DNA of 64,000 nt from Escherichia coli (lineage in GTDB: Bacteria; Pseudomonadota; Gammaproteobacteria; Enterobacterales; Enterobacteriaceae), in NCBI RefSeq assembly GCF_046105845.1, contig NZ_CP151004.1. One strand, 5' to 3'. The stretch's first letter is position 1, and each line of letters opens with the position of its first letter. Shown here piece after piece: positions 20,849 through 60,727 of this stretch. The position numbers and the translations under genes were made by a program. Under the pieces are notes generated by a model. It saw only the letters and a list, made by a program, of their open reading frames with translations, ran no database searches and was not told the origin of the DNA.

Positions 20849-21531
20849 TCTGCGGCATCTCCATAAACAGAAGGCAAGTTAAGTTCTCTTGCACCCTGCG
20901 CGCTATTTATCCATGCATACATTTCAGCGTTGCTGTGAATTGCCAGTCGACGCATCGCACTGTTTTTTTGGGCGCTGATAGTTTTATTACTTTTCTTAAG
21001 CAATGAAGCTATCTGGTTGATGCCCCATCCTTTACCTAATAGCCGCAGTACCTTGCGCTCTGAAAGAGTGAGAATGACGGAGCGATAGCTAAAATCATGA
21101 GTTTCAATCATTGCCGGAGAGGTCAGCATGGCGCTGATACGCTCTGAGTGCGTATTGCCGGAACGTACGGTCTTGACCAGATTCTCAATGGGTTCAACAT
21201 CAGACAATAACGTCGCCGTAGGGCACATGAGCATTTCTACTGCCTGGGAATACCAGGAACGTGACACCATGAAAACCCAGTGAATTTCCCGATATTGTGA
21301 GATTAAAGAATAATAATGTTCACAAACAGAACGTGGATCTTCACTTTCACCGGCTAAATCAGCAATGACTAATCCGGAACGACGTAATTGTAATAAGGTA
21401 AGGTCCTCCGCAGAGGCGCTGGATATTATTTCATATTCAGGGAAGTGAGTCCTCATGACCTCTTTTAACCCTGCTTGCATAACAGGTATTTTACTGATAA
21501 CAATTCCATTTTTGCAGCATCCTGGCAACAT
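20806..21531 (-). CDS. yjjQ: LuxR-type transcriptional regulator YjjQ
   Basis: 241 aa; LuxR HTH ([23 protein letters not shown]); overlaps bglJ start. Confidence 0.9.
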
Positions 21532-22150
21532 ATTTCCTCCACATCCACTGTCTATAAATCATGATGGTTTATTCAGGATATTCATCCCTTAAATATTTTC
21601 AGCAAATTAATAGATTAAGCGAATAAATTATCCTTTGCATTCACTTTTATATCAGCATACTCCTGCTGCACATTAACTCCACTGCATGTGTCAGAAGGTT
21701 AGCATCAAATGATAACCTGGTGAAATAGCCTGGAGACATTTAAAATATCTACATTAAGTTGTTAGAAATACTTAATGAAAAACAGAAATCTCATTCATTT
21801 AATTTATAATTAAATGATATCTCTTCTCGCAGAATGCGGGAATCACACAATCAATATTTATTCAATAAAATCTAATGGTTTTAACTTGTTAACATTAAAA
21901 AACGCGCCCAGCTATCTATTATCCTGACTCGTAAAGGTCAAACAATAAATTCATTATAGTGATAATATTCATTCGATAGTTTGTTTACGGCGAGAGATAA
22001 TTCGCTTTTTATCACCAAGCGTCTCCCGATAACCAGGATTAATCAGCGCAATTTTGATCTTAACCTACCGCAAAACAGCCGTGCTTCATGATACAAATGG
22101 ATTCTCATTATCTGAACAATACGCAGCACGTCTATGACAAAGGGCGAGTT

Positions 22151-41900: not shown

Positions 41901-42457
41901 ATATTGACGATGAAGTGGTGAGCGTAAAATCGCTGTACGGTGATTACGACACGCCGCAGGATTTCCTCGAAGCCTTTGACTCGCTGGTGCAACGTTCCCC
42001 GAACGCGCAACCGGCATTGCAGGCGGTGATCAATCGCCCGCGCGATCTCACCCGTAAAGGGCTGGTTGAACTCCAGGAGTGGTTTGACCGCCAGCACTTT
42101 GAGGAATCTTCCCTGCGCAAAGCGTGGAAAGAGACGCGCAATGAAGATATCGCTGCCCGGCTGATTGGACATATTCGCCGCGCTGCGGTGGGCGATGCGC
42201 TGAAACCGTTTGAGGAACGTGTCGATCACGCGCTGACGCGCATTAAGGGCGAAAACGACTGGAGCAGCGAGCAATTAAGCTGGCTCGATCGTTTAGCGCA
42301 GGCGCTGAAAGAGAAAGTGGTGCTCGACGACGATGTCTTCAAAACCGGCAACTTCCACCGTCGCGGCGGGAAGGCGATGCTGCAAAGAACCTTTGACGAT
42401 AATCTCGACAACCTGCTTGATAAATTCAGCGATTATATCTGGGACGAGCTGGCCTGA
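38945..42457 (+). CDS. hsdR: Type I restriction enzyme R subunit HsdR (type IA, EcoKI-like)
   Basis: 1170 aa; SF2 motor motifs MATGTGKT and VVDEAHRG. Confidence 0.95.
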   Translation: MMNKSNFEFLKGVNDFTYAIACAAENNYPDDPNTTLIKMRMFGEATAKHLGMLLNIPPCENQHDLLRELGKIAFVDDNILSVFHKLRRIGNQAVHEYHNDLDDAQMCLRLGFRLAVWYYRLVTKDYDFPVPVFVLPERGENLYHQEVLTLKQQLEQQAREKAQTQAEVEAQQQKLVALNGYIAILEGKQQETEAQTQARLAALEAQLAEKNAELAKQTEQERKAYHKEITDQAIKRALNLSEEESRFLIDAQLRKAGWQADSKTLRFSKGARPEPGVNKAIAEWPTGKDETGNQGFADYVLFVGLKPIAVVEAKRKNIDVPGKLNESYRYSKCFDNGFLRETLLEHYSPDEVHEAVPEYETSWQDTSGQQRFKIPFCYSTNGREYRAAMKTKSGIWYRDVRDTRNMSKALPEWHRPEELLEMLGSEPQKQNQWFADNPGMSELGLRYYQEDAVRAVEKAIVKGQQEILLAMATGTGKTRTAIAMMFRLIQSQRFKRILFLVDRRSLGEQALGAFEDTRINGDTFNSIFDIKGLTDKFPEDSTKIHVATVQSLVKRTLQSDEPMPVARYDCIVVDEAHRGYILDKEQTEGELQFRSQLDYVSAYRRILDHFDAVKIALTATPALHTVQIFGEPVYRYTYRTAVIDGFLIDQDPPIQIITRNAQEGVYLAKGEQVERISPQGEVINDTLEDDQDFEVADFNRGLVIPAFNRAVCNELTNYLDPTGSQKTLVFCVTNAHADMVVEELRTAFKKKYPQLEHDAIIKITGDADKDARKVQTMITRFNKERLPNIVVTVDLLTTGVDIPSICNIVFLRKVRSRILYEQMKGRATRLCPDVNKTSFKIFDCVDIYSTLESVDTMRPVVVRPKVELQTLVNEITDSETYKITEADGRSFAEHSHEQLVAKLQRIIGLATFNRDRSETIDKQVRRLDELCQDVAGVSFNGFASRLREKGPHWSAEVFNKLPGFIARLEKLKTDINSLNDAPIFLDIDDEVVSVKSLYGDYDTPQDFLEAFDSLVQRSPNAQPALQAVINRPRDLTRKGLVELQEWFDRQHFEESSLRKAWKETRNEDIAARLIGHIRRAAVGDALKPFEERVDHALTRIKGENDWSSEQLSWLDRLAQALKEKVVLDDDVFKTGNFHRRGGKAMLQRTFDDNLDNLLDKFSDYIWDELA

Positions 42458-42658
42458 CACGTATACACTTCATCCTTCAGGCTACCTCTGCGTTGGCTGC
42501 GCTCGTTCACCCCGGTCACGTACTTCTGTACGCTCCCGGGGATTCACTCACTTGCCGCCTTGATGCAACCTGAATGATTTTGTGTATATTACCCTCGGCA
42601 ATTTCTTTTTCTGCGGCCCCAAACAATGCGGGCCGCTGCTTAATTTACGGAACTCACA

Positions 42659-44248
42659 ATGAACAATAACGATCTGGTCGCGAAGCTGTGGAAGCTGTGC
42701 GACAACCTGCGCGATGGCGGCGTTTCCTATCAAAACTACGTCAATGAACTCGCCTCGCTGCTGTTTTTGAAAATGTGTAAAGAGACCGGACAGGAAGCGG
42801 AGTACCTGCCGGTAGGCTACCGCTGGGATGATCTGAAATCCCGTATCGGTCAGGAGCAGTTGCAGTTCTACCGTAACCTGCTGGTACATCTGGGCGCCGA
42901 CAATCAAAAGCTGGTGCAGGCGGTGTTCCAGAACGTCAACACCACCATTACCCAGCCGAAACAGTTGACCGAGCTGGTCAGCAATATGGATTCACTGGAC
43001 TGGTACAACGGTGCGCACGGTAAGTCGCGCGATGACTTCGGCGATATGTACGAAGGGCTGCTGCAGAAGAACGCCAACGAAACCAAGTCTGGCGCGGGCC
43101 AGTACTTCACCCCGCGTCCGCTGATTAAAACCATTATTCATCTGCTGAAACCGCAGCCGCGTGAAGTGGTGCAGGATCCGGCAGCAGGTACGGCGGGCTT
43201 TTTGATTGAAGCCGACCGCTACGTTAAGTCGCAAACCAATGATCTGGACGACCTTGATGGCGACACGCAGGATTTCCAGATCCACCGCGCCTTTATCGGC
43301 CTCGAACTGGTGCCCGGCACCCGTCGTCTGGCGCTGATGAACTGCCTGCTACACGATATTGAAGGCAACCTCGACCACGGCGGCGCAATCCGTCTGGGCA
43401 ACACCCTGGGTAGCGACGGTGAAAATCTGCCGAAGGCGCATATTGTCGCCACTAACCCGCCGTTTGGCAGCGCCGCAGGCACCAACATTACCCGCACCTT
43501 TGTCCACCCGACCAGCAACAAACAGTTGTGCTTTATGCAGCATATTATCGAAACGCTGCATCCCGGCGGTCGTGCGGCGGTAGTGGTGCCAGATAACGTG
43601 CTGTTTGAAGGCGGCAAAGGCACCGACATCCGTCGTGACCTGATGGATAAGTGTCATCTGCATACCATCCTGCGTCTGCCGACCGGTATTTTTTACGCTC
43701 AGGGCGTGAAAACTAACGTGCTGTTCTTTACCAAAGGGACGGTGGCGAACCCGCATCAGGATAAGAACTGCACCGATGATGTGTGGGTGTACGACCTGCG
43801 TACCAATATGCCGAGCTTCGGCAAGCGCACGCCGTTTACCGACGAGCATTTGCAGCCGTTTGAGCGCGTGTATGGCGAAGATCCCCACGGTTTAAGCCCG
43901 CGCACTGAAGGTGAATGGAGTTTTAACGCCGAAGAGACGGAAGTTGCCGACAGCGAAGAGAACAAAAACACCGATCAGCATCTGGCTACCAGCCGCTGGC
44001 GCAAGTTCAGCCGCGAGTGGATCCGCACCGCGAAATCCGATTCGCTGGATATCTCCTGGCTGAAAGATAAAGACAGTATTGATGCCGACAACCTGCCGGA
44101 GCCGGATGTATTAGCGGCAGAAGCGATGGGTGAACTGGTGCAGGCGCTGGGCGAACTGGATGCGCTGATGCGTGAACTGGGGGCGAGCGATGAGGCCGAT
44201 TTGCAGCGTCAGTTGCTGGAAGAAGCATTTGGTGGGGTGAAGGAATGA
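42659..44248 (+). CDS. hsdM: Type I restriction-modification M subunit HsdM (N6-adenine methyltransferase)
   Basis: 529 aa; SAM motif DPAAGTAGF and catalytic NPPF. Confidence 0.95.
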   Translation: MNNNDLVAKLWKLCDNLRDGGVSYQNYVNELASLLFLKMCKETGQEAEYLPVGYRWDDLKSRIGQEQLQFYRNLLVHLGADNQKLVQAVFQNVNTTITQPKQLTELVSNMDSLDWYNGAHGKSRDDFGDMYEGLLQKNANETKSGAGQYFTPRPLIKTIIHLLKPQPREVVQDPAAGTAGFLIEADRYVKSQTNDLDDLDGDTQDFQIHRAFIGLELVPGTRRLALMNCLLHDIEGNLDHGGAIRLGNTLGSDGENLPKAHIVATNPPFGSAAGTNITRTFVHPTSNKQLCFMQHIIETLHPGGRAAVVVPDNVLFEGGKGTDIRRDLMDKCHLHTILRLPTGIFYAQGVKTNVLFFTKGTVANPHQDKNCTDDVWVYDLRTNMPSFGKRTPFTDEHLQPFERVYGEDPHGLSPRTEGEWSFNAEETEVADSEENKNTDQHLATSRWRKFSREWIRTAKSDSLDISWLKDKDSIDADNLPEPDVLAAEAMGELVQALGELDALMRELGASDEADLQRQLLEEAFGGVKE

Positions 44249-45615
44249 GTGCGGAGAAATTGCCGGAGGGGTGGGTTGAGTGTGAATTATCCGAACTCGG
44301 TAACATTGTTACAGGGAAAACTCCCAGTACCAAGGAGCCTTCCAATTTTGGAGGCAGCATTCCTTTCATTAAACCAGGCGATCTTGATCTCGGTGGCTAT
44401 ATCATGAATACCGCCGATACTCTGACGGAGAAAGGGTTATCTCTTGTCCCCACTCTTCCTGCCAATTCAGTCGTTGTGACGTGTATTGGAAATTTAGGAA
44501 AAGTTGGAATTACCGCTAAAAAATCAGCATCTAATCAACAAATAAATGCATTGATCCCGTCAGAAAAGCTAAATGTAAAATTTGTTTATTACCAAATTTT
44601 AACATTAAAACCATGGTTAGAGTCTCAATCAGCAGCTACTACAATTGCGATTGTGAACAAGAGCAAATTTTCTCAGGCACCATTTAAATTCCCGTCGCTT
44701 GCCGAACAAAAAATCATCACTGAAAAACTCGATACGCTGCTGGCGCAGGTAGACAGCACCAAAGCACGTCTTGAGCAAATCCCACAAATCCTGAATCGTT
44801 TTCGTCAGGCTATTCTAGCTAATGCTGTGGAAGGAAAATTGACCGACGAATGGCGAGCCGGAAAATGTTATATTACAGAAATCAAAAAAATATCTGATAT
44901 TATTCAGAATGCTCAAGTCGGATTAGTTCGTTCAGCTTCAGATCAAAGCGAAATATGCACTCAAAAAATGAGAACGCCTTATATAAAAATGAATAACATT
45001 CACAATGTTCTCGGAACAAATTTAGAAAAACTCGCTTATGTCAACTGTGATAGCTATGAACTGGAAAAATATAGATTAAAAAATGGAGATTGGCTCTTTA
45101 ATACACGAAATAGTTATGAGTTAGTTGGTAAATCCTGTGTCTGGAATGGATGTAGCAATGCTGTATATAATAATAATATATTAAGAGTTAGACTAAAAGA
45201 AAACTACAATTCTGTTTTTTTAGATTATTGGTTTCACTCGTTCTATGGAGTGAGCATGCTTAATAGTATTAAATCCGCAACAACAAATGTTGCTGCGATA
45301 TATCAGAAAGAACTCTTAAGTAAAAGTGTTCCATTCCCCCCCCTTCCCGAACAAGCCGAGATTGTTCGCCGCGTCGAACAACTCTTCGCCTACGCCGACA
45401 CCATAGAAAAACAGGTCAACAACGCCTTAGCCCGCGTTAACAACCTGACGCAATCCATCCTGGCAAAAGCGTTCCGTGGTGAACTCACCGCCCAGTGGCG
45501 GGCCGAAAACCCGGATTTAATCAGCGGAGAAAACAGCGCCGCCGCGTTGCTGGAAAAAATCAAAGCTGAACGCGCAGCCAGCGGGGGTAAAAAAGCCTCG
45601 CGTAAAAAATCCTGA
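44245..45615 (+). CDS. hsdS: Type I R-M specificity subunit HsdS, apparently non-EcoKI TRDs
   Basis: 456 aa; ATGA overlap with hsdM; conserved N-terminal, central (LAEQKIITEKLDTLLAQVDSTKAR) and C-terminal regions flank two low-GC variable TRDs. Confidence 0.9.
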   Translation: MSAEKLPEGWVECELSELGNIVTGKTPSTKEPSNFGGSIPFIKPGDLDLGGYIMNTADTLTEKGLSLVPTLPANSVVVTCIGNLGKVGITAKKSASNQQINALIPSEKLNVKFVYYQILTLKPWLESQSAATTIAIVNKSKFSQAPFKFPSLAEQKIITEKLDTLLAQVDSTKARLEQIPQILNRFRQAILANAVEGKLTDEWRAGKCYITEIKKISDIIQNAQVGLVRSASDQSEICTQKMRTPYIKMNNIHNVLGTNLEKLAYVNCDSYELEKYRLKNGDWLFNTRNSYELVGKSCVWNGCSNAVYNNNILRVRLKENYNSVFLDYWFHSFYGVSMLNSIKSATTNVAAIYQKELLSKSVPFPPLPEQAEIVRRVEQLFAYADTIEKQVNNALARVNNLTQSILAKAFRGELTAQWRAENPDLISGENSAAALLEKIKAERAASGGKKASRKKS

Positions 45616-45749
45616 TCATTATTTTCTGGCGCACCTTTCCGGTGCGCTTTTTATTATTTTACGCCAATCATAACTCACGCAAATATATTTAAATCATTCC
45701 AGAAATTGCCTATTTTATTCTATTTTTAGCTGGACTTTCCCTGTATTTA

Positions 45750-45765
45750 CTGATGATATATCCAG
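45750..45765. promoter_or_regulatory. Putative LexA (SOS) box upstream of symE
   Basis: CTGATGATATATCCAG (CTG-N10-CAG) about 80 bp upstream of symE ATG. Confidence 0.4.
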
Positions 45766-45842
45766 GTATTTAGCGCGGTGCGGATGTGCGCCAACACACC
45801 CGCACCGCTCATCACAATCACTATTCCAGGAGAATAGCAGTT

Positions 45843-46184
45843 ATGACTGACACGCATTTTATTGCACAACCGTTCGAAGCAGAAGTCTCCCCGGCAAATA
45901 ACCGTCAATTAACCGTGAGTTATGCGAGCCGCTACCCGGATTACAGCCGTATTCCCGCCATCACCCTGAAAGGTCAGTGGCTGGAAGCCGCCGGTTTTGC
46001 CACCGGCACGGCGGTAGATGTCAAAGTGATGGAAGGCTGTATTGTCCTCACCGCCCAACCCCCCGCCGCTGAAGAGAGCGAACTGATGCAGTCGCTGCGC
46101 CAGGTGTGCAAACTGTCGGCGCGTAAACAAAAGCAGGTGCAGGCGTTTATTGGAGTGATTGCCGGTAAACAGAAAGTCGCGTAA
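45843..46184 (+). CDS. symE: SOS-induced toxin-like protein SymE (AbrB/SpoVT fold)
   Basis: 113 aa [52 protein letters not shown]... Confidence 0.9.
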
Positions 46185-46345
46185 CAGCGTTTACTCCCGG
46201 TTAACCACCGGGAGCCTTCCACTGACTCAATAGAAACTTTCCCCCTCAGTAAATATTTACCTGCCTGATTGTGCAGTAAAAATCTATTGTTTCAGTACGT
46301 TGCGAAAGCGATAATAGAGGCTTAGCAATGAGGAAGGCACATCTT

Positions 46346-47725
46346 ATGGAATCAATTCAAGCCTGGATTGAAAAATTTATTGAGCAAGCACAGCAACAAA
46401 GTTCGCAATCCACTAAAGATTATCCAACGTCTTACCGTAACCTGCGAGTAAAAGTGAGTTTCGGTTATGGCAATTTTACATCTATTCCCTGGTTTGCATT
46501 TCTTGGAGAAGGTCAGGAAGTTTCTAACGGTATATATCCCGTTATTCTCTATTATAAAGATTTTGATGAGTTGGTTTTGGCTTATGGTATAAGTGACACG
46601 AATAAACCACATGCACAATGGCACTTTTCTTCTGACATACCTAAAACAATCGCAGAGTATTTCCAGGCAACTTCAGGTGTATATCCTAAAAAATACGGAC
46701 AGTCCTATTACGCCTGTTCCCAAAAAGTCTCACAGGGTCTTGATTATACCCGGCTTGCCTCCATGCTGGACAACATAATCAACGACTATAAATTAATATT
46801 TAATTCTGGCAAGAGTGTTATTCCACCTATGTCAAAAACTGAATCATACTGTCTGGAAGATGCGTTAAATGATTTGTTTATCCCTGAAACCACAATAGAG
46901 ACGATACTCAAACGATTAACCATCAAAAAAAATATTATCCTCCAGGGGCCGCCCGGCGTTGGAAAAACCTTTGTTGCACGCCGTCTGGCTTACTTGCTGA
47001 CAGGAGAAAAGGCTCCGCAACGCGTCAATATGGTTCAGTTCCATCAATCTTATAGCTATGAGGATTTTATACAGGGCTATCGTCCGAATGGTGTCGGCTT
47101 CCGACGTAAAGACGGTATATTTTACAATTTTTGTCAGCAAGCTAAAGAGCAGCCAGAGAAAAAGTATGTTTTTATTATAGATGAAATTAATCGTGCCAAT
47201 CTCAGTAAAGTATTTGGCGAAGTGATGATGTTAATGGAACATGATAAACGAGGTGAAAACTGGTCTGTTCCCTTAACCTACTCCGAAAACGATGAAGAAC
47301 GATTCTATGTCCCGGAGAATGTTTATATTATCGGTTTAATGAATACTGCCGATCGCTCTCTGGCCGTTGTTGATTATGCCCTGCGCAGACGATTTTCTTT
47401 CATAGATATTGAGCCAGGTTTTGATACACCACAGTTCCGGAATTTTTTACTGAATAAAAAAGCAGAACCTTCATTTGTTGAGTCTTTATGCCAAAAAATG
47501 AACGAGTTAAACCAGGAAATCAGCAAAGAGGCCACTATCCTTGGGAAAGGATTCCGCATTGGGCATAGTTACTTCTGCTGTGGGTTGGAAGATGGCACCT
47601 CTCCGGATACGCAATGGCTTAATGAAATTGTGATGACGGATATCGCCCCTTTACTCGAAGAATATTTCTTTGATGACCCCTATAAACAACAGAAATGGAC
47701 CAACAAATTATTAGGGGACTCATAG
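46346..47725 (+). CDS. mcrB: 5-methylcytosine-specific restriction enzyme McrB (GTPase subunit)
   Basis: 459 aa from internal ATG with AGGAAGG RBS; AAA+ Walker A GPPGVGKT. Confidence 0.95.
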   Translation: MESIQAWIEKFIEQAQQQSSQSTKDYPTSYRNLRVKVSFGYGNFTSIPWFAFLGEGQEVSNGIYPVILYYKDFDELVLAYGISDTNKPHAQWHFSSDIPKTIAEYFQATSGVYPKKYGQSYYACSQKVSQGLDYTRLASMLDNIINDYKLIFNSGKSVIPPMSKTESYCLEDALNDLFIPETTIETILKRLTIKKNIILQGPPGVGKTFVARRLAYLLTGEKAPQRVNMVQFHQSYSYEDFIQGYRPNGVGFRRKDGIFYNFCQQAKEQPEKKYVFIIDEINRANLSKVFGEVMMLMEHDKRGENWSVPLTYSENDEERFYVPENVYIIGLMNTADRSLAVVDYALRRRFSFIDIEPGFDTPQFRNFLLNKKAEPSFVESLCQKMNELNQEISKEATILGKGFRIGHSYFCCGLEDGTSPDTQWLNEIVMTDIAPLLEEYFFDDPYKQQKWTNKLLGDS

Positions 47726-48771
47726 TGGAACAGCCCGTGATACCTGTCCGTAATATCTATTACATGCTTACCTATGCATGGGGTTATTTACAGGACATTA
47801 AGCAGGCCGACCTTGAAGCCATACCCGGTAACAATCTTCTTGATATCCTGGGGTATGTATTAAATAAAGGGGTTTTACAGCTTTCACGCCGAGGGCTTGA
47901 GCTTGATTACAATCCTAATACCGAGATCATTCCTGGCATCAAAGGGCGAATAGAGTTTGCTAAAACAATACGCGGCTTCCATCTTAATCATGGGAAAACC
48001 GTCAGTACTTTTGATATGCTTAATGAAGACACGCTGGCTAACCGAATTATAAAAAGCACATTAGCCATATTAATTAAGCATGAAAAGTTAAATTCAACTA
48101 TCAGAGATGAAGCTCGTTCACTTTATAGAAAATTACCGGGCATTAGCACTCTTCATTTAACTCCGCAGCATTTCAGCTATCTGAACGGCGGAAAAAATAC
48201 GCGTTATTATAAATTCGTTATCAGTGTCTGCAAATTCATCGTCAATAATTCTATTCCAGGTCAAAACAAAGGACACTACCGTTTCTATGATTTTGAAAGA
48301 AACGAAAAAGAGATGTCATTACTTTATCAAAATTTTCTTTTTGAATTTTGCCGTCGTGAATTACCATCTGTAAATACAACTCGCCCACATTTAAAATGGG
48401 ATGCATCAAGCATATCGGATCAATCACTTAGCTTGTTACCTCGAATGGAAACTGACATCACCATTAACTCATCAGGGAAAATACTTATCGTTGATGCCAA
48501 ATACTATAAAAGCATTTTTTCACGACGAATGGGTACAGAAAAGTTTCATTCTCAAAATCTATATCAACTGATGAGTTACTTATGGTCGTTAAAGCCTGAA
48601 AATGGCGAAAAAACAGGGGGGTTATTAATATACCCACACGTAGACACCTCAGTGAAACATCGTTATAAAATTAATGGCTTCGATATTGGCTTGTGTACCG
48701 TCAATTTAGGTCAGGAATGGCCGTGTATACATCAAGAATTACTCGACATTTTCGGTGAATATCTCAAATAA
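47725..48771 (+). CDS. mcrC: McrBC endonuclease subunit McrC
   Basis: 348 aa from GTG overlapping mcrB stop by 1 nt (TAGTG); PD-(D/E)xK region ...DITINSSGKILIVDAKYYKS. Confidence 0.9.
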   Translation: MEQPVIPVRNIYYMLTYAWGYLQDIKQADLEAIPGNNLLDILGYVLNKGVLQLSRRGLELDYNPNTEIIPGIKGRIEFAKTIRGFHLNHGKTVSTFDMLNEDTLANRIIKSTLAILIKHEKLNSTIRDEARSLYRKLPGISTLHLTPQHFSYLNGGKNTRYYKFVISVCKFIVNNSIPGQNKGHYRFYDFERNEKEMSLLYQNFLFEFCRRELPSVNTTRPHLKWDASSISDQSLSLLPRMETDITINSSGKILIVDAKYYKSIFSRRMGTEKFHSQNLYQLMSYLWSLKPENGEKTGGLLIYPHVDTSVKHRYKINGFDIGLCTVNLGQEWPCIHQELLDIFGEYLK

Positions 48772-48827: not shown

Positions 48828-51800
48828 TCAGGAGGCGATCACCTCCACCAGCACATCCGTTGCCCAACTCTCTTCGCTGTTGGCGACATTCCCTTCCTTG
48901 CAGGCCTGAGCCATTTTGACTAACTGGAAAGAAACGTCATCGCGGAAATCAAAGTAATGCCATTGCGATGCAAAGTTGATGCGCCAGTAGCCCATCCCCT
49001 GATCGAAGCGGATCTTCAATACCTGACCATCATCAAAAGTCACCGTCAGTTTACGATGGTGAGGGATATCGCGCGGCGAGTCGAACACCGTCAGTTCTAC
49101 CGGCCTGCCCAGCGCAGCAGCAAACCACTGATCAGCGAAATCCTGAAAATCCGCTATGCTCATCCAGTCATGGAAAGGCCGGTTACCGGGGCGATCTTTA
49201 TCTTTAAATAGCGTATCCAGCGTCACTTCAGCGCCATCGGTCAGCTTTGTTTTTAGCGGTCTCAAAATTGATCCCAACAACGCCAGCGCAACCGGGTTTT
49301 GCAGATAGCGATCGGTATAGTGAACGCCGGTAATTCGCGTGTTATTCATCAGTGACTGCGCTTCTTCATGGTCGTTAAACAGCACGTCCCAGAAGCGTTG
49401 CCCAAACTGCGACAGTGGTCCATTCAACTGTTTGTGGATCTGAATGTCTTTGACCCGCTCGACAGCGTTGGCGGCTTTAGCCGGCAGAATAAATTCGTTC
49501 AGCTCTACCGTTTTATAGCCGAGACTACGTACCACCAGTTCGTCATTCAGGTGCCACTCCGGCCCCGGAATCGTTGCCTGCTGGCTACGAGAGGCCAGCG
49601 TCATCACGCGATCGGCAAAGGTGACCTGAGCAACGATCGGTAATTTCAAATCCTGTTCAACATGGCATAGCCGCACACCCAGCGCAGTAAATTGCGATAG
49701 TTCGTGCAACAGGTCCGGGTCATCCACTCCCGCAGGAATAACAAGATCGACCTCGACGTTGTCTTTTAGCCGATAGTTCTGAACCGCCGCGCGGAACTGA
49801 CGTGCGTATAAATCCCACTCATTGGGCGCGCCGGTCATCCACAGGGTGAGCTTTTCAGCGCCTTCGTTAATCGCCCGGCGAATCGTATCGCCAATGGCGC
49901 CAGGGCAGTAGCGGGCATCCGGCAGCGAGAATGTCTCTTCATCCGGTAAACCGATGTAATACGTGAAGTCATCGCCAAGCCAGGCCAGCGCCGCTTTGCG
50001 ATCCAGCAAATCGTGATCGTGGCGAGTCTGGGAATCAAGCAGGCATTCACTACATGCAGTCTCACAATGGCGGCAGCCTAACTGTTTCACCATTCCCTGC
50101 AATATAGCTTCAATGTGTACCGGTGCGCTGGAGGCAAAACCTGCACCACCGCTGATCACATCATAAAGCTGTACGGCTAATACCGATTGCCCATCCTCCA
50201 GTCTGACCGGACGTACAGAATAGCCGAGTTCTGCGGCGGAGATACCCAGAACGCCCGCCAGCGCCTGACGCAGAGCAACCGCCAGAGTCATGGCAACAAT
50301 CCGCCCCTCCTCTGTGTTATCTGGCAGATACTCGCCGTTTTGCGGTTTGCGCAGAACCATTTCAAAGACATCGGTGCGCGCCAGTGCGCCCAGGGTGACG
50401 TTCTTCATGAGTGCCGTCGAACCGGGGCAAATCAGACGATGATTCTGGCTATCGCGGTCCGCTTTACCCGGACGCGGTGGATAGTGAGCTTCCATGCTTT
50501 TCGGCGCATCATTTTCATTCAGCATCGACTCAGCACGGCCACAGCTCAGACACAATGCATAACCGTGTCCACCTTCCCCCAAACTTTGCTGGAAAACATG
50601 CCCATCAGCCCCAGAAGCCATATAACCCATTAGCGGGTTAGGCAACGGTACGGGCTCTGCTTTAACAAAGACCCACGCGGGGACAACCGGGACGAATTTC
50701 ATGGTTTCAATATTGTTCGTTACCGGAGCGTGTGCATCGGTGACAAACCCGGCAGGCTGCAGCACCTGACGGCGATTATCCATGATTATTTTTTCGCCGC
50801 AGGCGCTATTGGAGCAAAAGAGCATCCCGGAACTGCTCATCCCCTCTTCATAGCCAATGGTCCCGCATTTGTGACAGCGCCAGGCGCAATCCAGACGCTG
50901 GGCTTCATTGGTATCAGCATTAATGTTGTGCCAGTGCAGTGAGACACCGGCAGAGCGGAAGACACGGCCATCAAGAATGATCTCTGCTCCCGGTGCATAT
51001 TCACGAATGGCAACACCGAGGTTACGGGAAGGTAATCCTTTATAACGGGAGACGTTATCTTCACGGTCCTTTTTATCACGACTTTTTTGCGATTTTTCGC
51101 GGATATAATCTTCCATTGTGAAGTTATCAAACGTCACTACATCTGTCGGGAAACCGTATCCCGGCAAGAAGGTTCTGGCAGCTAGATCGCGCAGCAGATA
51201 CTCGCCACAGTGCCGTTTCTTCTCCAGCTCTATGCGCTTACGATAAGGCGTTTGCGGCTGCGACTCACGCTCCTGTGTCACGAGATCGCGATAAACGGAG
51301 AGCCACCGCTGCTGCAGGAAGGTGATCGCGTTGATTGTTTTATCCCGCAGATATTCGGCTCTTGCACCATGCAACGCCGTACCTTTCACCAGCCGTTCCA
51401 GCGCCGTGTCGATATCAAGAACAGGGCGTTCCAGCCAGACTTTGAAGCGTTCGCATTTTGACTGCCCGTCATCTTCACCGAAAAACCAGAGGCTATCGAG
51501 GCTGGTTTTCTCTTTATCGGTTTCGCCAATAACGTTACATAAAAAGTCGGACAGTAATAATGCATTGACGTGACGTTGCACCAGTCGGGCGGAGTTCATC
51601 GCGACCATGGGTGCCGGGATCATGGTTTCAAATGGCCAGAGCGGGTTGGCAAAAACCTGCTGGTCGTGTGGGTTACCTTTACATAGGGTGTAAGAGATCG
51701 CACGTGATTCTTTACTACGCCCGGCTCGCCCGGCGCGCTGTAAATAGTTGGCCGGATGTGGCGGTACGTTGTTCATTACCACCGCAGTAATGCCCCCGAT

Positions 51801-54800
51801 ATCAACCCCCATTTCCATGGTGGTGGAACAGTTGAGAACATTTAGTTGCCCATTCTTGAACATCTTTTCATAGCTTTGCAGACGTTCTGACGACTGCTGG
51901 GCAGAGTGCTCGGCAGTGCGATAGTAGAAACCGCCTTCCACGACACGATCGTTGATGTCTGTCCAGACGTTTTCCGACCGCAATTGTGCGATCAGCGGAT
52001 CATTGCTGACCCAGTCGCGTGCTTTTGCCAGACCCTCTGCGTAGTCTTCCTGTGAACGATCCAGCTTCCAGATTTCCGGCATGGTGACTTTCTGCGCGAC
52101 AAAAGTGTCATATTGCGCCTGGGTAAGATGCTCGAACGAAATATGGGTAGGCAGATAAGGGGTTAAGCCTTTAAAAGCCGTATCCAGGATTTTATTGGTT
52201 ACCGGGCAAATCCAGGCATCCGTGATTAATGAAAAAGTCATATGCTCTTTCGGTAAATAAAAACGGTTGCCATCGGGTTTCAGTACTGCAAGCGGTCCGG
52301 TAAGTTGGGCCCATGCTTCTTTCAGCCATGTATTGATAATATCAATAGTCGCCGTATTGACGGTTTTGAATCCAGCCCCCAGCATCAGTAACTTCGCTAA
52401 ACGATGGGATACGTTGCCATTACGAATTTGAGGCCAGCGTCTGTTCTGATTATCTTCAGGATCTTTTGATTCCGGGTTACGGACGAATTTTGATGAAAAA
52501 CGGCTACCGATCCAGTTTTTCAGCTCATCATCCAGCTGTGTGAAGTTGCTCTCACGAACGTAATGATCCAGCGTAACTTTGAGAAAATCGCGCCAGTCAT
52601 CCAGCGTTAATCCTTTTTCCTGCCAGTGCAGAGGGATCTTATGTATTTTCTCCAGCCCCAGGTAACCAACCTGAACCAGCCCTTGTGTTTCCAGGCTGTT
52701 AGTCCGTTTAGGGCGACGCATGAATTCCCGGAATAACAACATTTCCGAAAGCTTTAGAGGCCCGCCGTTTTCATTAAACACTTCAGGCTTAAGATAATGG
52801 TTATATTGCAGAACCGGGCCACGGATATCGGCTCTCTCTTTAAGCTCGTTAACCATTTCTGTCCAGGTTCGGGATACCAGAGTAATTGCAGCTTTTCCAC
52901 CGATTGCAGACTGGTAAGCCTGTTCAAGCTGCTCGGCCTGCGCTTCTGATAATTTCGCTTGATCCGGCAATCCCCAGCTTCGATATTCTTCTGCCTGCTC
53001 ACGGGCTTGCTTTACCCTGGTCGCTAATTTTTCCAGATCGGCATTAGCGTTCGGCGCCGTGGGCGTTTGCGTTCGTTGATGCCAGCTCAGAATTTCGACT
53101 ACGCTTCCGCGTAAGCGACTACGTTCTGCTTCTTGCTGCATACGCACCGCCATCCGGGCTGTCCCTTGTCGACTATCCGTAAAGGTAATGAGTCGACGTC
53201 CTCGCCCTGGCAACGAATCTGGTCCGACGCCCTCTTTGCCTTCATCACTGGCAAAGTCCTGACAATACTCAAGAACGGTAGGCACGATGTTAGTAACGTA
53301 AAATGGCCCACCTAATAATGCACGCCGAAAGGGTTGTTTTCCGCTCATGCCTCGGTAGCCACAGCCGCTGGCGCTACAAACCTGTTCAATATCATTAATA
53401 ATCAGCGGAATGCTGTCATTATTAATAACGCCAATACGGCGCGTCTGACGGTCGAGGCGTTGTAGGGTATAGCCTGTCTCGCTGGTCTCTCCTGCGGCAA
53501 TAATCAACGGAGGCTGGAAACTGTTCTCTTTTTCGACTTTTTCCTCTGTAGTGTCATGTTCAACAGGTACTTCATCCTGCAAGGAGAACTCATCGCCACC
53601 TTTATTTTCCCATTGGACAAGTTTGCCCTTTTTGTCCTGCGCCAGAAGATGAGGCTCATTACAATCATTACAGAACGCCACTTCGTATACAGGGCTTCCA
53701 CAGTCACAATTTTGTCGCTGGTTCACATACACATAGCCAAAGGGCCAGCCTTTTTCGAGCGGTGTACCGTGCTTTAATCTGCAATCTTTATCAACACAAG
53801 CCCATATTCCCTGGGTATTACGCTGGAAGATATGCGCCCTGACTTTAAGAAATGCGGGATCCTTTGCATTAGGTTGAGTCCCTGAACAGACATCGATCCA
53901 ACGCAGTACTTCCTGCTGGCTGTAATGCTGTTTTGTCAGCACGTTTAACCGCTCTGTTATCTCATCCAGCTTCATCGGATTGGGCTGTTTGACCAACATC
54001 TCACGTATGTAACGCGCTTCGGGGGAATGCGTAAGCGCATAAAAGCGATCAGGACTTATACCTTTAATTTTATTATCATTTTTATCTCTTAGATCCAGAT
54101 CGGGTATTTGCTCTATTTCGTCTAACGGAAGAGAAACGTTTTTGGATGGTTCCAGTTCAGGAATCACCCGACTTCCGTCCAGAACATCGATGCGCTCCTT
54201 CGGGATACCGGATAATTCAGAGAGAAATTTTTTCAGCTGCTTTTCGACGTCGCTGCCGGCAATGGTCGCAGAGGTCGCTACAAAGCGCACATCATCTGGC
54301 GTCACGCCAAACGCTGTCATCACACGACGCAGCTGGAGCGCCAGTTCAGCGGCCTGCGACCCGACATAGGTATGCGCTTCATCCAGTACAATCCAGCGTA
54401 GTGATTTTTGTGCTTTGGATTGCTGGATAATCGGGGCGTCGACCTGGCGAACCATCATATATTCCAGCATCGTGCCGTTGGTCACCAGAATCGGGGCAGG
54501 TTCTTCACGCATTTTTTCGCGCGAGAGCACCTCATTCGGCCTTTTTGCCTGTTCGCTTTTTACCGAAGCGTGTAGGTTTTCGGTGTTACCGTTGTAAAGG
54601 CAGTAGCGGATCCCGGTACCAAAACCACGCGTCCAGGCATCCAGACGCTCGCGCTGTGAATTAATCAGGGCGTTCAATGGATAGAGAAAAAGGGCTCGGA
54701 CACCGACCAACGGATTGTTGCCATTTTCATGCAGTTCCCGGTAAAGATCTTCCAGCACCGGTACCATAAAACATTCCGTTTTACCTGAACCCGTACCACT

Positions 54801-55172
54801 GGTTACCACCACTGAATGTTTCTTTTCCAGCAAAGCTTTCCAACTGGCTAACTGGTGTGTAAAAGGCTTCCAGTCAGCACCAAATCGGTACCGGCCATTA
54901 CTCTGATCATCCAGTGAATCAACCACTGCTTTGCTCAACAATGCGTTGCCTTCCGTCAGACTGCGCATCGTGTGGTTTGACTCCTTCCAGCCAAACATTT
55001 GCTGGAATACCGGAGAAGCAAGGAATGAGCCCGGTTTCCCACAATCAGCCCCCATTTGTTGCGCGAGATGTTCACGCAGCTGCGGGTTGGTTACGCCCAT
55101 GATACTGAGCGTTGCTTCAGTTGAACGAGACAACGATTGTTCAATAAGTGACGAAAAATAGCGTGTAGTCAT
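48828..55172 (-). CDS. Large SF2 helicase with C-terminal Cys clusters (DUF1998-like); candidate DruE of a Druantia type III-like system
   Basis: 2114 aa; Walker [16 protein letters not shown] (aa ~125-135), DEAH box IVLDEAHTY (~262-269), motif III ATSAT, motif [10 protein letters not shown]; Cys pairs CHKCG...CSNSACG and CLSCG. Confidence 0.85.
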
Positions 55173-55184
55173 CCTTATTCCTTT

Positions 55185-58100
55185 TTATTTTTTAGCAACA
55201 TAACGCAACAGGCTGCACTGAAAGATGGTCTTAAACCAGCGGGAATCGAAGTCCCTGACTTGCCTCAGGAAAAATACGGCACCGGGTTTACGGTCAAATA
55301 CAGCTTCAAAAGAAGTATTTCCGCTTGCCACAGCTGCAGCGAAGACGGGTAACCAGGCCACGGAATAGCGGTGATTTGCGTCAGGATTAATACCAATCAC
55401 TGGCTTTTTTTGTGACATCATCCATTTATACAGACGCTTGCAGCCATATTCAGGCCAGCGAGCTTCACTGTGCTCACGTAAAAGCTCCTGATACCACCCG
55501 TGGACACAAGATTCAGGAATAGACGGAGGGAGATATCCGTTACTTAACCATTTCTCAATTTCATCGGCATATGTCGGGAACACGAGCCCCAGCCGTTGAA
55601 ACATATTAGTAACCAGTAATTTCTGGGTTTCCTCCGGTGCACCTTTTTGGCTCAGGAACAATTTGAAACGCTCAGATGCAGCTTTGATCTCAAAGATGGG
55701 GAAAAACTCCCATAGAATAGGGAACTCATTCTCAATACGACTCAGGTACTCTGCTGACATTTCAAATTTGAAGAGCGACATTGCCAATGCCTGCGGATGC
55801 TGCACCAGTGCACGCCATACTTCAAAGGTTGCCAGTGGTAAATACCCGAATTGATCGTACAGGCTACGCATAAATTGCCAGCCGGAATGGGCAGGATCGT
55901 TAGCCATCTGTCCGAGAACCAGTGTGATGGTATTAACTTCTGCCTGTGGATTAAAAAGCTGGGTCGCTTTCTGCAATGAGCGGATGTTGCTTTCTTCTAC
56001 CGGTAACGAAGATTCGCCACGAATGAAGCAGGGACGAAAAGCCATCTCTTCACCCGGTTTAGGGACAACCAACCACGGTCCATTTTTGTTAACGATTGAG
56101 CTCAACTCATATTCACCGACAGGCACTCCCTCGCTCATTCTAGATGCTAAGGGAATGGATTTCCTCTCGGGTTCACTTAACAGCATGATAACGGGGGAAG
56201 GAATCTGCCCAGCACGATGGTTCACTGACTGGCTGAGTAATAGTTCTTTTTCATAATCATAGCGCAGGCTGTATTTATAGCGACGAATTTGCCAGGCCAT
56301 GACCACACCTGCCCCCGTAATACGCATCTCAACAACCTGATCAATACCTGCCTCAAGTGAAATCAGGTTCTCAATATGTTCGCGAAGACTATAGAGATTC
56401 AATTCAACAGGACGATCGCTCAACGCCGTATAACACCATTCATGCCATGCCTGTAATCCACTAACGGAGCGCAAATACAACTGCAATGTATATTTTGTCG
56501 GCTCACCATTTCTGGAGAACAGAAACGCTCTGGAACCCAGCAGATCATGCAGCGTAATGTTTTTATCCAGAGGACGTCCGTTTACATCAAGAGCGAGACA
56601 GCCTTTAGCGGGAAAAGGTAACTCAATGTCGATGGGGTCAGCCGCCAAATTAGGCAGAACTTGTAATGTAATAAATGCCGGAGGTACCCCTTCCGCTTTA
56701 AGTTGTATCTCTGTTCGCCCCTCAGTACGCTTACGTGTAGCCTCCAATGTTTTATCTTTAAGTTTTGCTACACAAGGATGCTGTGTGGTGATTAAGATAG
56801 TGCCTTCATTTGCGTGCATTCCACCTTTTATCTCAATACTGAAATCAGCAGGCAAGATACCGATTTTGCGACGCAAGAGCGTTTCATTGTTACTATTACG
56901 GATAGAAAGATATTGAGCCCCCAGCATCTCTTGTATATGACATTGCTCAATTGAAATTCCGCTCAGGTAACGCGTTACATCAATGCTTTGAATATCCGGT
57001 AGTGTAGAAATGACTTTTGGTACACCAATAAATGTTTCATCTGGATGACAAACCCAGCTTGCACGCTTTCCATTTAGAGCAAACCTTCCGATGCTGATTT
57101 GTTCTCTTCCGGTGCGAATCCGATAAGTTTCATTTGCTGTAACTGTAACGTCCTGACATCCCTTCACAGGTAGTGCTTTTAGTCCTAATACGTTTACTGC
57201 GCTCGATTGGCCATCAAAACCAGCAACATTGCTATTATCCCGAGGGAGTACAATCAGAACATCGCTGCTTCGCACACTGCAAGAAGCCTGTCCCTGTAAC
57301 AGCCATTGATCTGCATCAACGATGAAGGTTAACGGCACCTCACCAATGGCAATTTCACTGTCATCAAGTTTAATGCTCCCAACAATCATCCCTCCAGCAC
57401 GAGCCACTAATGACAAACCTGCCGATGGATTTTGCCTGACAAATCTCACTTCGCTTTTACGTAATCGAACTGTTGCCTGTCTGTTTTCCAGGGAAGCATA
57501 GGCTGGCCCAAGGCCAGAGACTTCCTCACCATCTTCACAAATGGCAAGTTCAAAGCGCGTAGTTGACGGCTCGCTTGTTACAGGAAAGGAAACTTCGTCC
57601 GGAAGAGATACTATCACCCTAAGCTCATCTGGATGCTTTTCTGACCAATAGAATTGGCAACGCGTACTCTTATTTTTTTGTAGTCGAGGCTTAGCCTCTA
57701 CAGAGGCTGCGCATAGCAGTCCATTCAAAAAATGCGTTCCTGTTTCATCATCTAACGGTATTGGAAACTCGCTTCGCCAGGTAGGGTGAACCTTCTCAAG
57801 CTGTTGTACTGGTTCTTTGTGATTTATTAGGTTGTGAGTAAGTACTAAGGAATTGAGGTTATCAGCCATATGACTGATAAGTTCTACAGAGGTATCTTCG
57901 CTAAAAACAGTTGGCAGCGCTGATTTTTCTATGACAGCTCTTGCCAGCGAAAGGGCAGAAAAACCTGACTGCTTTGCTTGCTCATATTGTCCAAGGATCC
58001 TGGAGAAAACAGCCAGAAAGCGACTGTCTGATTCTTTGAGTAGCCGGAAAGGTAAACCACCTTCACTGAATAATGTTCCGAGAAAATTGCGTCGTTCAGA

Positions 58101-58475
58101 TTCATAAAATCGAATTGGGCGCAGCCAGTAATCTTCCATCCCTTTCGGTACGATAGTACCAAGCTCTGTGGCGGTGAATGAAATCCCTATTTTTTTATAT
58201 ATAGGGTCCCACGTCCATCCGCATTGCCGTTCATAATCCCTGCGGTACCACTCAGAGCAAAAAAGAACAAAACAGGCAGCAAAGTCCCTATTACATATAT
58301 TAGATTGTGATTGATCGACCGCACGGAGTAGCTGCGTTAATTGGGTATATTCATCATTGGTTGCATGATATTCATAAAGAGGACGGCCATCCGGTTGTCT
58401 CAACCCTCTAAGATTCACAAAGTTACTTAGCCAGGAAGTACATTTTACCCATGAAATGTATTCTGATTGACCCAA
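55185..58475 (-). CDS. Large protein with no recognisable motif; candidate DruH-like partner of the helicase
   Basis: ORF 55185..58523 (GTG); preferred TTG start at 58475 preceded by AAGGAG with 6-nt spacer; 12-bp gap to downstream helicase gene. Confidence 0.8.
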   Translation of the reverse strand: MGQSEYISWVKCTSWLSNFVNLRGLRQPDGRPLYEYHATNDEYTQLTQLLRAVDQSQSNICNRDFAACFVLFCSEWYRRDYERQCGWTWDPIYKKIGISFTATELGTIVPKGMEDYWLRPIRFYESERRNFLGTLFSEGGLPFRLLKESDSRFLAVFSRILGQYEQAKQSGFSALSLARAVIEKSALPTVFSEDTSVELISHMADNLNSLVLTHNLINHKEPVQQLEKVHPTWRSEFPIPLDDETGTHFLNGLLCAASVEAKPRLQKNKSTRCQFYWSEKHPDELRVIVSLPDEVSFPVTSEPSTTRFELAICEDGEEVSGLGPAYASLENRQATVRLRKSEVRFVRQNPSAGLSLVARAGGMIVGSIKLDDSEIAIGEVPLTFIVDADQWLLQGQASCSVRSSDVLIVLPRDNSNVAGFDGQSSAVNVLGLKALPVKGCQDVTVTANETYRIRTGREQISIGRFALNGKRASWVCHPDETFIGVPKVISTLPDIQSIDVTRYLSGISIEQCHIQEMLGAQYLSIRNSNNETLLRRKIGILPADFSIEIKGGMHANEGTILITTQHPCVAKLKDKTLEATRKRTEGRTEIQLKAEGVPPAFITLQVLPNLAADPIDIELPFPAKGCLALDVNGRPLDKNITLHDLLGSRAFLFSRNGEPTKYTLQLYLRSVSGLQAWHEWCYTALSDRPVELNLYSLREHIENLISLEAGIDQVVEMRITGAGVVMAWQIRRYKYSLRYDYEKELLLSQSVNHRAGQIPSPVIMLLSEPERKSIPLASRMSEGVPVGEYELSSIVNKNGPWLVVPKPGEEMAFRPCFIRGESSLPVEESNIRSLQKATQLFNPQAEVNTITLVLGQMANDPAHSGWQFMRSLYDQFGYLPLATFEVWRALVQHPQALAMSLFKFEMSAEYLSRIENEFPILWEFFPIFEIKAASERFKLFLSQKGAPEETQKLLVTNMFQRLGLVFPTYADEIEKWLSNGYLPPSIPESCVHGWYQELLREHSEARWPEYGCKRLYKWMMSQKKPVIGINPDANHRYSVAWLPVFAAAVASGNTSFEAVFDRKPGAVFFLRQVRDFDSRWFKTIFQCSLLRYVAKK

Positions 58476-58973
58476 AGCAAGCTCCTTAGAGATAAAAGAT
58501 ACAAAAACAAAACCCCACAACACTTCTAATTTGAAAGAAAACTTTTCAAAATATCGTATAATTAATCAGGCGGCAACAACTAATTTTTCAGGTCGGTACT
58601 ATAAATTAATTTTAGATAAAAATGATATCAACCATCTATTAATCACAACTCATTTATCACCTGGTTTTATAATTTCAAATGAAAATAAATCTCAAACAAT
58701 CAAAAAGTATGCAGTAGCTAACATTTAACTTTCCAGGATATAAAACAATTAGAGAAACTGCACAATAGCGAATAATGAAAGTTGTAAAGTCAGTCAAAAA
58801 ACACAAGCAATCAGTGTGCGTTTTTTGACCGTTATCGACATGAGTTTAAAGAGTTTAGTGAAGAAGATATTCCTGTACACTCCATACCTATTGATGAATT
58901 GTCTCGGGAAAATTTTTATAACTTAATTTAAAAACATAAAAACGTTTTATTATATATAAATCTATACCCCCCC

Positions 58974-59138
58974 TCACTCCACATCCTCCCTGCGTAACCC
59001 AATATCCCTCAACCGCTCATCACTCATCTGCTGTAACACCCGCCGGGCCTGCATTTGCCGCCGCCAACGCCTCACTGCCTGCCAGAGTTGCACAAGTCCA
59101 ATAAACGGTGCTTTAGCTTTGTTTTCGTGAAATTCCAT
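58974..59138 (-). CDS. yjiS: Small protein YjiS (DUF1127)
   Basis: 54 aa hand-translated: MEFHENKAKAPFIGLVQLWQAVRRWRRQMQARRVLQQMSDERLRDIGLRREDVE; below ORF-track size cut-off. Confidence 0.85.
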   Translation of the reverse strand: MEFHENKAKAPFIGLVQLWQAVRRWRRQMQARRVLQQMSDERLRDIGLRREDVE

Positions 59139-59314
59139 CTGCTGCCTCCTCATCTTTCAGAGGCTTCATCATCCGTCTTCTGGCAGTTCACAATACAGAT
59201 GCAAATATTAGTTTTATTTAACATACAGACAGGTTAAAACAGCATCTGCATCCGGTTTTTTAGCCTCATCTGTACCGGTTTTTCTCTCTGTATGGTCCAA
59301 ATAAGGAACACAGC

Positions 59315-60727
59315 ATGACGCGTTATCAACATCTGGCGACTCTACTTGCCGAGCGGATTGAGCAGGGGCTGTATCGTCACGGGGAGAAATTGCCGTCGGT
59401 GCGCAGCTTAAGTCAGGAGCACGGCGTCAGTATCAGCACCGTGCAGCAAGCGTACCAGACGCTGGAGACGATGAAGCTCATCACTCCGCAGCCGCGTTCG
59501 GGTTATTTTGTCGCACAACGTAAAGCCCAGCCGCCAGTGCCGCCGATGACGCGTCCGGTGCAGCGCCCGGTGGAAATAACCCAGTGGGATCAGGTGCTGG
59601 ACATGCTGGAGGCGCATAGCGACAGTTCCATTGTTCCGTTAAGCAAAAGCACGCCGGATGTCGAAACGCCCAGCCTGAAACCGCTCTGGCGGGAGCTAAG
59701 CCGGGTGGTGCAGCATAATCTGCAAACCGTTCTCGGTTATGACTTGTTAGCCGGTCAGCGGGTATTGCGCGAGCAGATTGCCCGCCTGATGCTCGACAGC
59801 GGCTCGGTAGTCACCGCCGATGACATCATCATTACCAGCGGCTGCCATAATTCGATGTCGATGGCGTTAATGGCGGTGTGTAAACCGGGCGATATTGTCG
59901 CGGTCGAATCCCCCTGTTATTACGGTTCGATGCAGATGCTGCGCGGCATGGGCGTGAAAGTGATTGAAATCCCAACCGATCCAGAAACTGGCATCAGCGT
60001 TGAAGCGCTGGAATTGGCGCTGGAACAGTGGCCGATTAAAGGCATCATTCTGGTGCCAAACTGTAATAATCCGCTGGGATTTATTATGCCGGACGCGCGC
60101 AAACGGGCCGTTCTCTCGCTCGCTCAGCGTCATGATATTGTGATTTTTGAAGATGATGTCTACGGCGAACTGGCGACGGAGTATCCGCGCCCGCGGACCA
60201 TTCATTCCTGGGATATCGACGGGCGAGTGCTACTGTGCAGCTCGTTCAGTAAAAGTATTGCACCTGGCCTGCGCGTGGGTTGGGTCGCACCGGGGCGTTA
60301 TCACGATAAACTGATGCATATGAAATACGCCATCAGCAGCTTTAATGTGCCGTCCACGCAAATGGCGGCGGCAACGTTTGTGCTGGAAGGTCACTATCAT
60401 CGCCATATCCGGCGGATGCGGCAGATCTATCAGCGCAATCTGGCACTTTATACCTGCTGGATACGGGAATATTTTCCCTGCGAAATCTGTATTACGCGCC
60501 CGAAAGGCGGATTTTTACTGTGGATAGAATTGCCTGAACAGGTCGATATGGTCTGCGTCGCGCGGCAGCTGTGCCGCATGAAAATCCAGGTGGCGGCAGG
60601 CTCGATTTTCTCGGCTTCCGGCAAATACCGTAATTGTCTGCGCATCAACTGCGCTTTGCCGCTCAGCGAAACCTATCGCGAAGCACTAAAACAAATTGGC
60701 GAGGCCGTGTATCGGGCAATGAAATGA
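59315..60727 (+). CDS. yjiR: MocR/GntR-family regulator with aminotransferase-like domain
   Basis: 470 aa; N-terminal GntR HTH + class I aminotransferase-like fold. Confidence 0.9.
   Translation: MTRYQHLATLLAERIEQGLYRHGEKLPSVRSLSQEHGVSISTVQQAYQTLETMKLITPQPRSGYFVAQRKAQPPVPPMTRPVQRPVEITQWDQVLDMLEAHSDSSIVPLSKSTPDVETPSLKPLWRELSRVVQHNLQTVLGYDLLAGQRVLREQIARLMLDSGSVVTADDIIITSGCHNSMSMALMAVCKPGDIVAVESPCYYGSMQMLRGMGVKVIEIPTDPETGISVEALELALEQWPIKGIILVPNCNNPLGFIMPDARKRAVLSLAQRHDIVIFEDDVYGELATEYPRPRTIHSWDIDGRVLLCSSFSKSIAPGLRVGWVAPGRYHDKLMHMKYAISSFNVPSTQMAAATFVLEGHYHRHIRRMRQIYQRNLALYTCWIREYFPCEICITRPKGGFLLWIELPEQVDMVCVARQLCRMKIQVAAGSIFSASGKYRNCLRINCALPLSETYREALKQIGEAVYRAMK

Follow-up and report, generated by a model that had tools for sequence, protein, structure and literature searches.

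The window, that is, the whole stretch of 64,000 nucleotides of Escherichia coli DNA analysed here, is the E. coli Immigration Control Region (the hsd-mcr-mrr hypervariable locus). The following genes, and the spacer that is our subject, lie in its right-hand part; hsdRMS, mcrBC and yjiR are placed by gene order in the window.

38945-45615, plus strand: hsdRMS
46328-48771, plus strand: mcrBC
48828-55172, minus strand: druE (yjiV), helicase of 2114 aa, intact; full-length match to PADLOC DruE3 (E=0, 2697 bits)
55185-58475, minus strand: druH (yjiT), 1096 aa, intact; full-length match to PADLOC DruH3 (E=0, 1830 bits)
58476-58973, minus strand: whole non-coding spacer from the yjiS stop to the druH start, 498 bp, 29.1% GC; limits from the RefSeq annotation of near-identical genomes
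58974-59138, minus strand: yjiS (DUF1127, 54 aa); the fixed genes end here and the variable Immigration Control Region follows
59315-60727, plus strand: yjiR

The genes druH and druE are adjacent and co-oriented, druE starting 12 nt after the druH stop, and the pair is a Druantia type III operon with both genes intact. An earlier reading of this DNA, made from the sequence only, had called the gene downstream of the spacer "DruH-like", and the label is right, as the full-length DruH3 match is followed by a full-length DruE3 match. K-12 MG1655 has this layout too, with a yjiV pseudogene and a yjiT cut down to 505 aa. An IS3 lies inside yjiT of strain TC24, the closest genome (99.7% identity), and an IS100 inside yjiT of strain 2012C-4221. 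Together with the K-12 truncation, these insertions indicate that the Druantia III operon is often inactivated in E. coli.

The sequence-only reading had described 58524-58973 as a strongly AT-rich leader of 450 bp. The AT-richness is borne out: the GC content of this segment is 28.2%, versus 48.8% for the full window, a value as low is found in just 0.04% of 450-bp windows, and this is the lowest 450-bp region of the 64 kb, with the minimum, 27.3%, beginning at 58517. The left edge has to be moved. Position 58524 derives from the longest ORF, which begins at GTG 58523, whereas RefSeq genomes annotate the yjiT/druH start at TTG 58475, with AAGGAG 6 nt upstream. In other genera, a frame-breaking indel of 7 nt lies between the GTG and the TTG. 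Therefore, the spacer extends over 58476-58973, and the AT-rich leader described earlier is part of a 498-bp interval. Other AT-rich patches occur in the window, at 12820-14050 and 21417-22080, whose minima over 450 bp (28.7% and 29.8% GC) are comparable to that of the druH leader; the hsdS region (44769-45350) is another low-GC patch, at 30% GC.

Does the spacer encode a product of its own, either an RNA (cis-regulatory or small) or a small protein? A length of 498 bp is long for an E. coli intergenic region, there is cross-genus conservation (below), and small ORFs of 36-65 codons do exist within the spacer. However, none of these ORFs has a Shine–Dalgarno sequence and none is common to E. 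coli and E. whittamii, in agreement with the earlier statement that the leader holds no credible ORF. Nor do searches for RNA speak for a product: an Rfam scan of 58000-59500 gave nothing below E=0.1, the best matches (E=0.13) being to eukaryotic or archaeal snoRNAs and attributable to chance; the folding energy of the spacer RNA is no better than that of shuffled sequence (z=+0.45, single-sequence folding); and the alignment fold of the putative 5′ UTR reaches -2.3 kcal/mol, with 0 compensatory pairs and no covariation. We therefore give almost no credence to a product encoded by the leader itself.

Conservation of the druH leader

The spacer is made up of two segments with different histories.

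58476-58830, minus strand: leader travelling with the druHE cassette, about 355 bp, with homologues upstream of druH in Serratia, Pseudenterobacter, Citrobacter amalonaticus and Enterobacter
58831-58973, minus strand: distal junction segment, found in Escherichia only and abutting the yjiS stop codon; not conserved beyond E. coli and E. whittamii

Ten loci, at 41-95% identity, were found when genomes were scanned with DruH. In the nine Enterobacterales homologues (the 41% MAG being excluded), the 300-500 bp upstream of druH are AT-rich, at 22-38% GC per 100 bp. A profile was made of the leaders of Serratia, Pseudenterobacter, C. amalonaticus and Enterobacter only, with the Shine–Dalgarno sequence and the coding sequence left out; in an nhmmer search, it matches 58830-58563 with E=6.7e-19, and this is its sole match in the 64 kb. 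The Shine–Dalgarno block, 58476-58500, is also conserved across genera, and blocks between 58640 and 58800 are moderately conserved, with 0.5-0.66 identity per 20 nt. The genes on the far side of the leader differ by locus: there is an integrase in Serratia, yjiS and yjiR are found in Escherichia only, and the remaining loci have various other genes. The new point is that a leader of about 355 bp is conserved together with druH across genera and in unrelated flanking contexts.

The homology has limits. It was not detected upstream of DruH homologues at 62-66% identity, whose leaders are AT-rich, nor upstream of druH of the O157 Sakai/ATCC 8739 type (nhmmer E>=1). A pattern scan of metagenomes returned 7 loci, all near the Enterobacter or Citrobacter types and thus of little added diversity, and in the plasmid and phage collections the leader was present in no true plasmid or phage.

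Within E. coli, the 921 bp around the spacer match 3739 of 5426 complete genomes, where the annotated genes are yjiT, yjiS and yjiR, and the leader is present together with the druH 5′ end in 626 of the 5426. In the approximately 3100 genomes that have yjiS and lack druH, the homology ends at window position ~58969-58974, which is the yjiS stop codon. In S88 and in one O104:H4 strain, other cargo follows directly after yjiS (symE with a type I restriction–modification system, and GmrSD/DUF262). The spacer thus belongs to the variable island and not to the core. Four further E. coli genomes (95-98.5% identity) have the same leader ahead of a druH and a druE that are both intact. No terminator-like site was found in 58831-58973; just downstream of the yjiS stop (58936-58973), an intrinsic terminator was likewise not detected, and there is just a weak AAAACGTTTT palindrome.

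The leader is less uniform within E. coli, where it differs by 3-5%, than the 300 nt that open druH. The latter (58176-58475) are nearly invariant among E. coli alleles and show ~6 differences from E. whittamii; in the same comparison, the leader is ~16% different and druH overall is 86% identical at 4-fold sites. The near-invariant druH 5′ end could be a recombination boundary, or it could reflect an extra 5′ coding constraint.

These observations bear on a rival account of the spacer, namely that it is functionless AT-rich junction DNA left by insertion of the island and that its conservation reflects recent transfer only. The confinement of the distal segment to Escherichia would fit such an origin, as would a leader that varies more within E. 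coli than the beginning of druH does. The proximal 355 bp do not fit. The druH genes of Serratia, Pseudenterobacter, C. amalonaticus and Enterobacter have an identity to druH of the window of merely 0.37-0.50 at 4-fold sites, which is near saturation, so the transfer is not recent; and since the leader is still recognisably homologous although these sites are just 37-50% identical, it is under constraint. In addition, the invariant positions of the leader form a promoter-like pattern, and transcription of yjiT in K-12 is far above that of yjiS, as described below. Junction DNA is thus a very improbable explanation of the spacer as a whole.

Candidate promoters and the start codon

The elements recognised in the druH-proximal part of the spacer, in order of increasing distance from the gene, are the following.

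58473-58475, minus strand: TTG start codon of druH (RefSeq annotation, homologue comparison)
58482-58487, minus strand: Shine–Dalgarno sequence AAGGAG, 6 nt from the start codon (sequence and family alignment)
58548-58553, minus strand: candidate P1, -10 hexamer TATTTT (TATTCT in K-12); TA...T invariant in eight lineages
58571-58576, minus strand: candidate P1, -35 hexamer TTGCCG; TTG (58576-58574) invariant in 8 of 8 lineages
58580-58588, minus strand: AAAAATTAG, A-rich block adjoining the P1 -35 on its upstream side, almost without variation (family alignment)
58622-58630, minus strand: TGATATCAT, candidate P2, extended -10; TAT..T kept in 5 of 6 lineages
58666-58695, minus strand: TTGAGA-18-TATAAA, the best-match prediction of Shimada et al. 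2014 for the K-12 spacer (PMC3946193)

AT-rich DNA is full of weak promoter matches, and P1 and P2 were chosen by positional conservation only. A strict consensus scan for promoters and terminators over 58300-59400 gave 0 promoter-like sites versus 3.2 expected, from which it follows that P1 and P2, as promoters, would be weak ones. A looser scan with a position weight matrix gave many weak sites, and in most lineages one of these is the P1 candidate, at an unchanged place in the alignment. In the family alignment, the 17-bp spacing between the -35 and the -10 of P1 is invariant in eight lineages, and the sequence in between varies freely. P1, as TTGCCG-17-TATTTT, has its hexamers within the 17 +/- 1 bp of a sigma-70 promoter and its key positions are conserved; an invariant TTG-17-TA...T around a free spacer is the signature expected of a working sigma-70 promoter. 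From P1, transcription is predicted to start at ~58541, giving a U-rich 5′ UTR of ~66 nt. The block AAAAATTAG resembles the proximal subsite of an UP element and may act as one. The -35 of TTGAGA-18-TATAAA, on the other hand, is not conserved outside E. coli. Consensus matching by eye for Fur, IHF, CRP and PhoP found nothing consistent across lineages.

The start codon of druH is TTG in all the Enterobacteriaceae and Serratia homologues examined, and GTG in Proteus. A TTG also starts druH of the O157 type (position 14011 of the Sakai SpLE6 locus), where the leader is non-homologous. The conservation of this rare codon suggests selection for inefficient initiation of DruH translation.

Expression and H-NS at the K-12 orthologous spacer

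All of the regulatory and expression evidence comes from K-12, whose yjiS-yjiT spacer (U00096.3 4571916-4572413) serves as a proxy upstream of a truncated yjiT and a pseudogene yjiV; it aligns to the window without gaps at ~96% identity, with about 22 substitutions. In the RNA-seq data of PMC8894471, the mean logCPM is 7.34 for yjiT and 0.88 for the upstream yjiS. This difference argues that yjiT has a promoter of its own and is not transcribed by read-through from yjiS. A rough estimate from logCPM and logFC puts the wild-type level of yjiT at ~40 CPM. Tiling arrays also show yjiT transcripts, which are lower after UV (PMC3009722), and RNA polymerase occupancy at yjiT is altered in an rpoZ mutant (PMC5811629). 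In W3110, an acid shift induces yjiT 2.5-3-fold alongside gad, hde, dps and osm genes (PMC2270276). ChIP-exo binding of YiaU at yjiT, together with differential expression, has been reported; the supplements of the YiaU paper hold no yjiT entry.

The sequence-only reading suggested that the leader may be an H-NS-silenced promoter, and part of this claim stands. In its strong form, an H-NS filament would coat the leader and keep druHE silent under laboratory conditions, in the manner of the classical xenogeneic promoters. The A+T content of the spacer, 71%, is well above average and is what such a promoter should have. Genomic SELEX places H-NS binding sites and an RpoD-holoenzyme site in the K-12 yjiS>yjiT spacer (PMC3946193), so that binding in vitro is established, for the K-12 orthologue only. 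In RNA-seq of an hns deletion versus wild type, K-12 yjiT is up by a log2FC of +2.81 (p=1.3e-4; Forrest et al. 2022, PMC8894471 Suppl. Data 2), a derepression of ~7-fold. Furthermore, the adjoining genes mcrC, mcrB and hsdS are listed as H-NS-bound in vivo in K-12 (PMC8894471).

The spacer itself is not among the called regions. Between 4556900 and 4576905, the thresholded list of regions bound by H-NS in ChIP-seq is empty (PMC8894471 Suppl. Data 3), and its coordinates are those of U00096.3, as confirmed by entries that fall on mcrC/mcrB; yjiT is also missing from the "H-NS bound" gene list of the same study. ChIP data had been named as one check on the silencing claim, and in this thresholded K-12 list they go against occupancy of both the spacer and yjiT. 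As a separate observation, the K-12 orthologues of mcrC, mcrB and hsdS (window 42659-48771) are ChIP-bound and the druH leader, which is more AT-rich, is not. The high-affinity H-NS motif TCGATAAATT has no match with <=1 mismatch in the spacer, and at 2 mismatches there are only two matches, which is not an enrichment; a near-consensus site is thus absent. Near-zero expression in wild-type cells is not what is seen: K-12 transcribes yjiT at an appreciable level (logCPM 7.3, tiling arrays) and in a regulated manner (acid induction). In addition, protection from a native promoter is seen for another Druantia III, whose upstream region is just as AT-rich but non-homologous. Accordingly, the earlier claim is borne out as regards dependence on H-NS and not as regards silence, and we regard silencing by an H-NS filament as unlikely.

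Alternatively, the effect of hns could be indirect: the leader would carry a stress-responsive promoter, and loss of hns would raise an activator (RpoS, LeuO or the GAD/acid regulators), which would then raise yjiT. The lack of a ChIP-seq call at the spacer is consistent with this, as is the induction of yjiT by acid shift in the company of gad, hde, dps and osm genes. The RNA-seq comparison that shows the rise of yjiT in the hns deletion also shows strong derepression of leuO and the gad regulators, and the yjiT p-value there (1e-4) is much weaker than those of classical targets of similar fold change. The -10 is TAnnCT in most lineages. Against an indirect route, the spacer is bound by H-NS in vitro, and hallmarks of sigma-S, such as a C at -13, are absent from the promoter. 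SELEX with the RpoS holoenzyme gave a peak that, after conversion of its coordinates to U00096.3, falls ~200 bp inside yjiT; this speaks for a site of RpoS at the locus, but outside the spacer, and the peak was rejected as a leader feature. An indirect effect is thus possible, and we hold it as a tentative alternative. For K-12, the data are best read as showing that expression depends on H-NS, directly or indirectly, and that the promoter is damped rather than silent.

The proposed leader and known systems

We propose, with a probability of roughly 0.7, that the spacer serves the druH-druE (yjiT-yjiV) operon, of Druantia type III, as its promoter and regulatory leader. In this proposal, 58476-58830 would be part of the druHE cassette and would move with druHE between Enterobacterales genera and insertion sites. 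The leader would carry a weak sigma-70-type core promoter, P1, consisting of AAAAATTAG, TTGCCG, 17 bp and TATTTT, with a predicted start at ~58541; a second promoter, with the extended -10 TGATATCAT (58630-58622), is probable, and the further conserved upstream blocks most likely bind host proteins. An unstructured, U-rich 5′ UTR, the AAGGAG ribosome-binding site and the conserved, inefficient TTG would complete the leader. The weak promoter, an H-NS-dependent damping of ~7-fold and the TTG would together hold two very large defence proteins at a low level, not at zero. Within this scheme, we infer the exact start sites, the roles of the upstream blocks and the transfer from K-12 to the present strain, and H-NS may act on the leader directly or indirectly.

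It is tempting to go further and to see in the leader a dedicated module by which druHE expression goes up once control by nucleoid proteins is disturbed, that is, a sensor of infection or stress rather than a case of passive silencing. The triggers could be phage-encoded H-NS inhibitors, acid or DNA stress, and the conserved upstream blocks in 58600-58800 would then be operator sites. We consider such a sensor distinctly improbable. Seen as a genomic feature, the leader is of an ordinary kind, an AT-rich promoter region in front of a horizontally acquired operon.

Work on the mechanism of Druantia III is now under way, for the most part with inducible promoters or with another native upstream region that is non-homologous to the present one. 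The leader that we propose is therefore relevant to constructs for native-level expression and to the question of when E. coli deploys Druantia III. Three points should be useful here: druHE of the Immigration Control Region type has its own conserved leader of ~355 bp, this leader would combine a weak promoter with a conserved TTG, and in K-12 there is ~7-fold H-NS-dependent damping without silence.

Compared with the classical H-NS-silenced promoters (bgl, proU, hde/gad, LEE and SPI), the druH leader is alike in being AT-rich, in having a horizontally acquired gene downstream, in being bound by H-NS in vitro and in being derepressed when hns is deleted. Unlike them, it has no called ChIP-seq region and no high-affinity motif, and its wild-type expression in K-12 is substantial.

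The Druantia III-A of O157 Sakai and ATCC 8739 (ECs_5259-5260) offers a second comparison. Its upstream region is also AT-rich (31.8% GC) and its druH also starts with TTG; however, this region is only 211 bp long, lies divergent with Zorya and is non-homologous to our leader, and its DruH belongs to subtype PDLC00050 whereas that of the window is PDLC00049. In Sakai, the Zorya operon and Druantia III have this AT-rich divergent control region of 211 bp in common; Druantia III sits there in SpLE6 (locus 10326-40155), a phage-like element, with Zorya II-like genes on one side and four large helicase genes (ARMADA II) on the other. The Druantia III-A of ATCC 8739/EDL933 works under its own putative promoter and, in LB, in the host from which it comes. 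Given that the upstream region is non-homologous, this activity shows only that AT-rich upstream DNA need not mean silence.

The closest known relative is the K-12 yjiS-yjiT spacer itself, classified by SELEX as a "constitutive promoter with H-NS site" (PMC3946193). It is orthologous, lies between the same genes and likewise precedes a TTG start. The difference is that the K-12 operon is decayed whereas both genes are intact in the window, and that about 8 of the ~22 substitutions between the two spacers lie around P1. More broadly, the window has the K-12-like form of the Immigration Control Region, with hsdRMS, mcrBC and yjiT/yjiV beside yjiS/yjiR, an arrangement in which the leader and druH are the part carried by only 626 of 5426 genomes.
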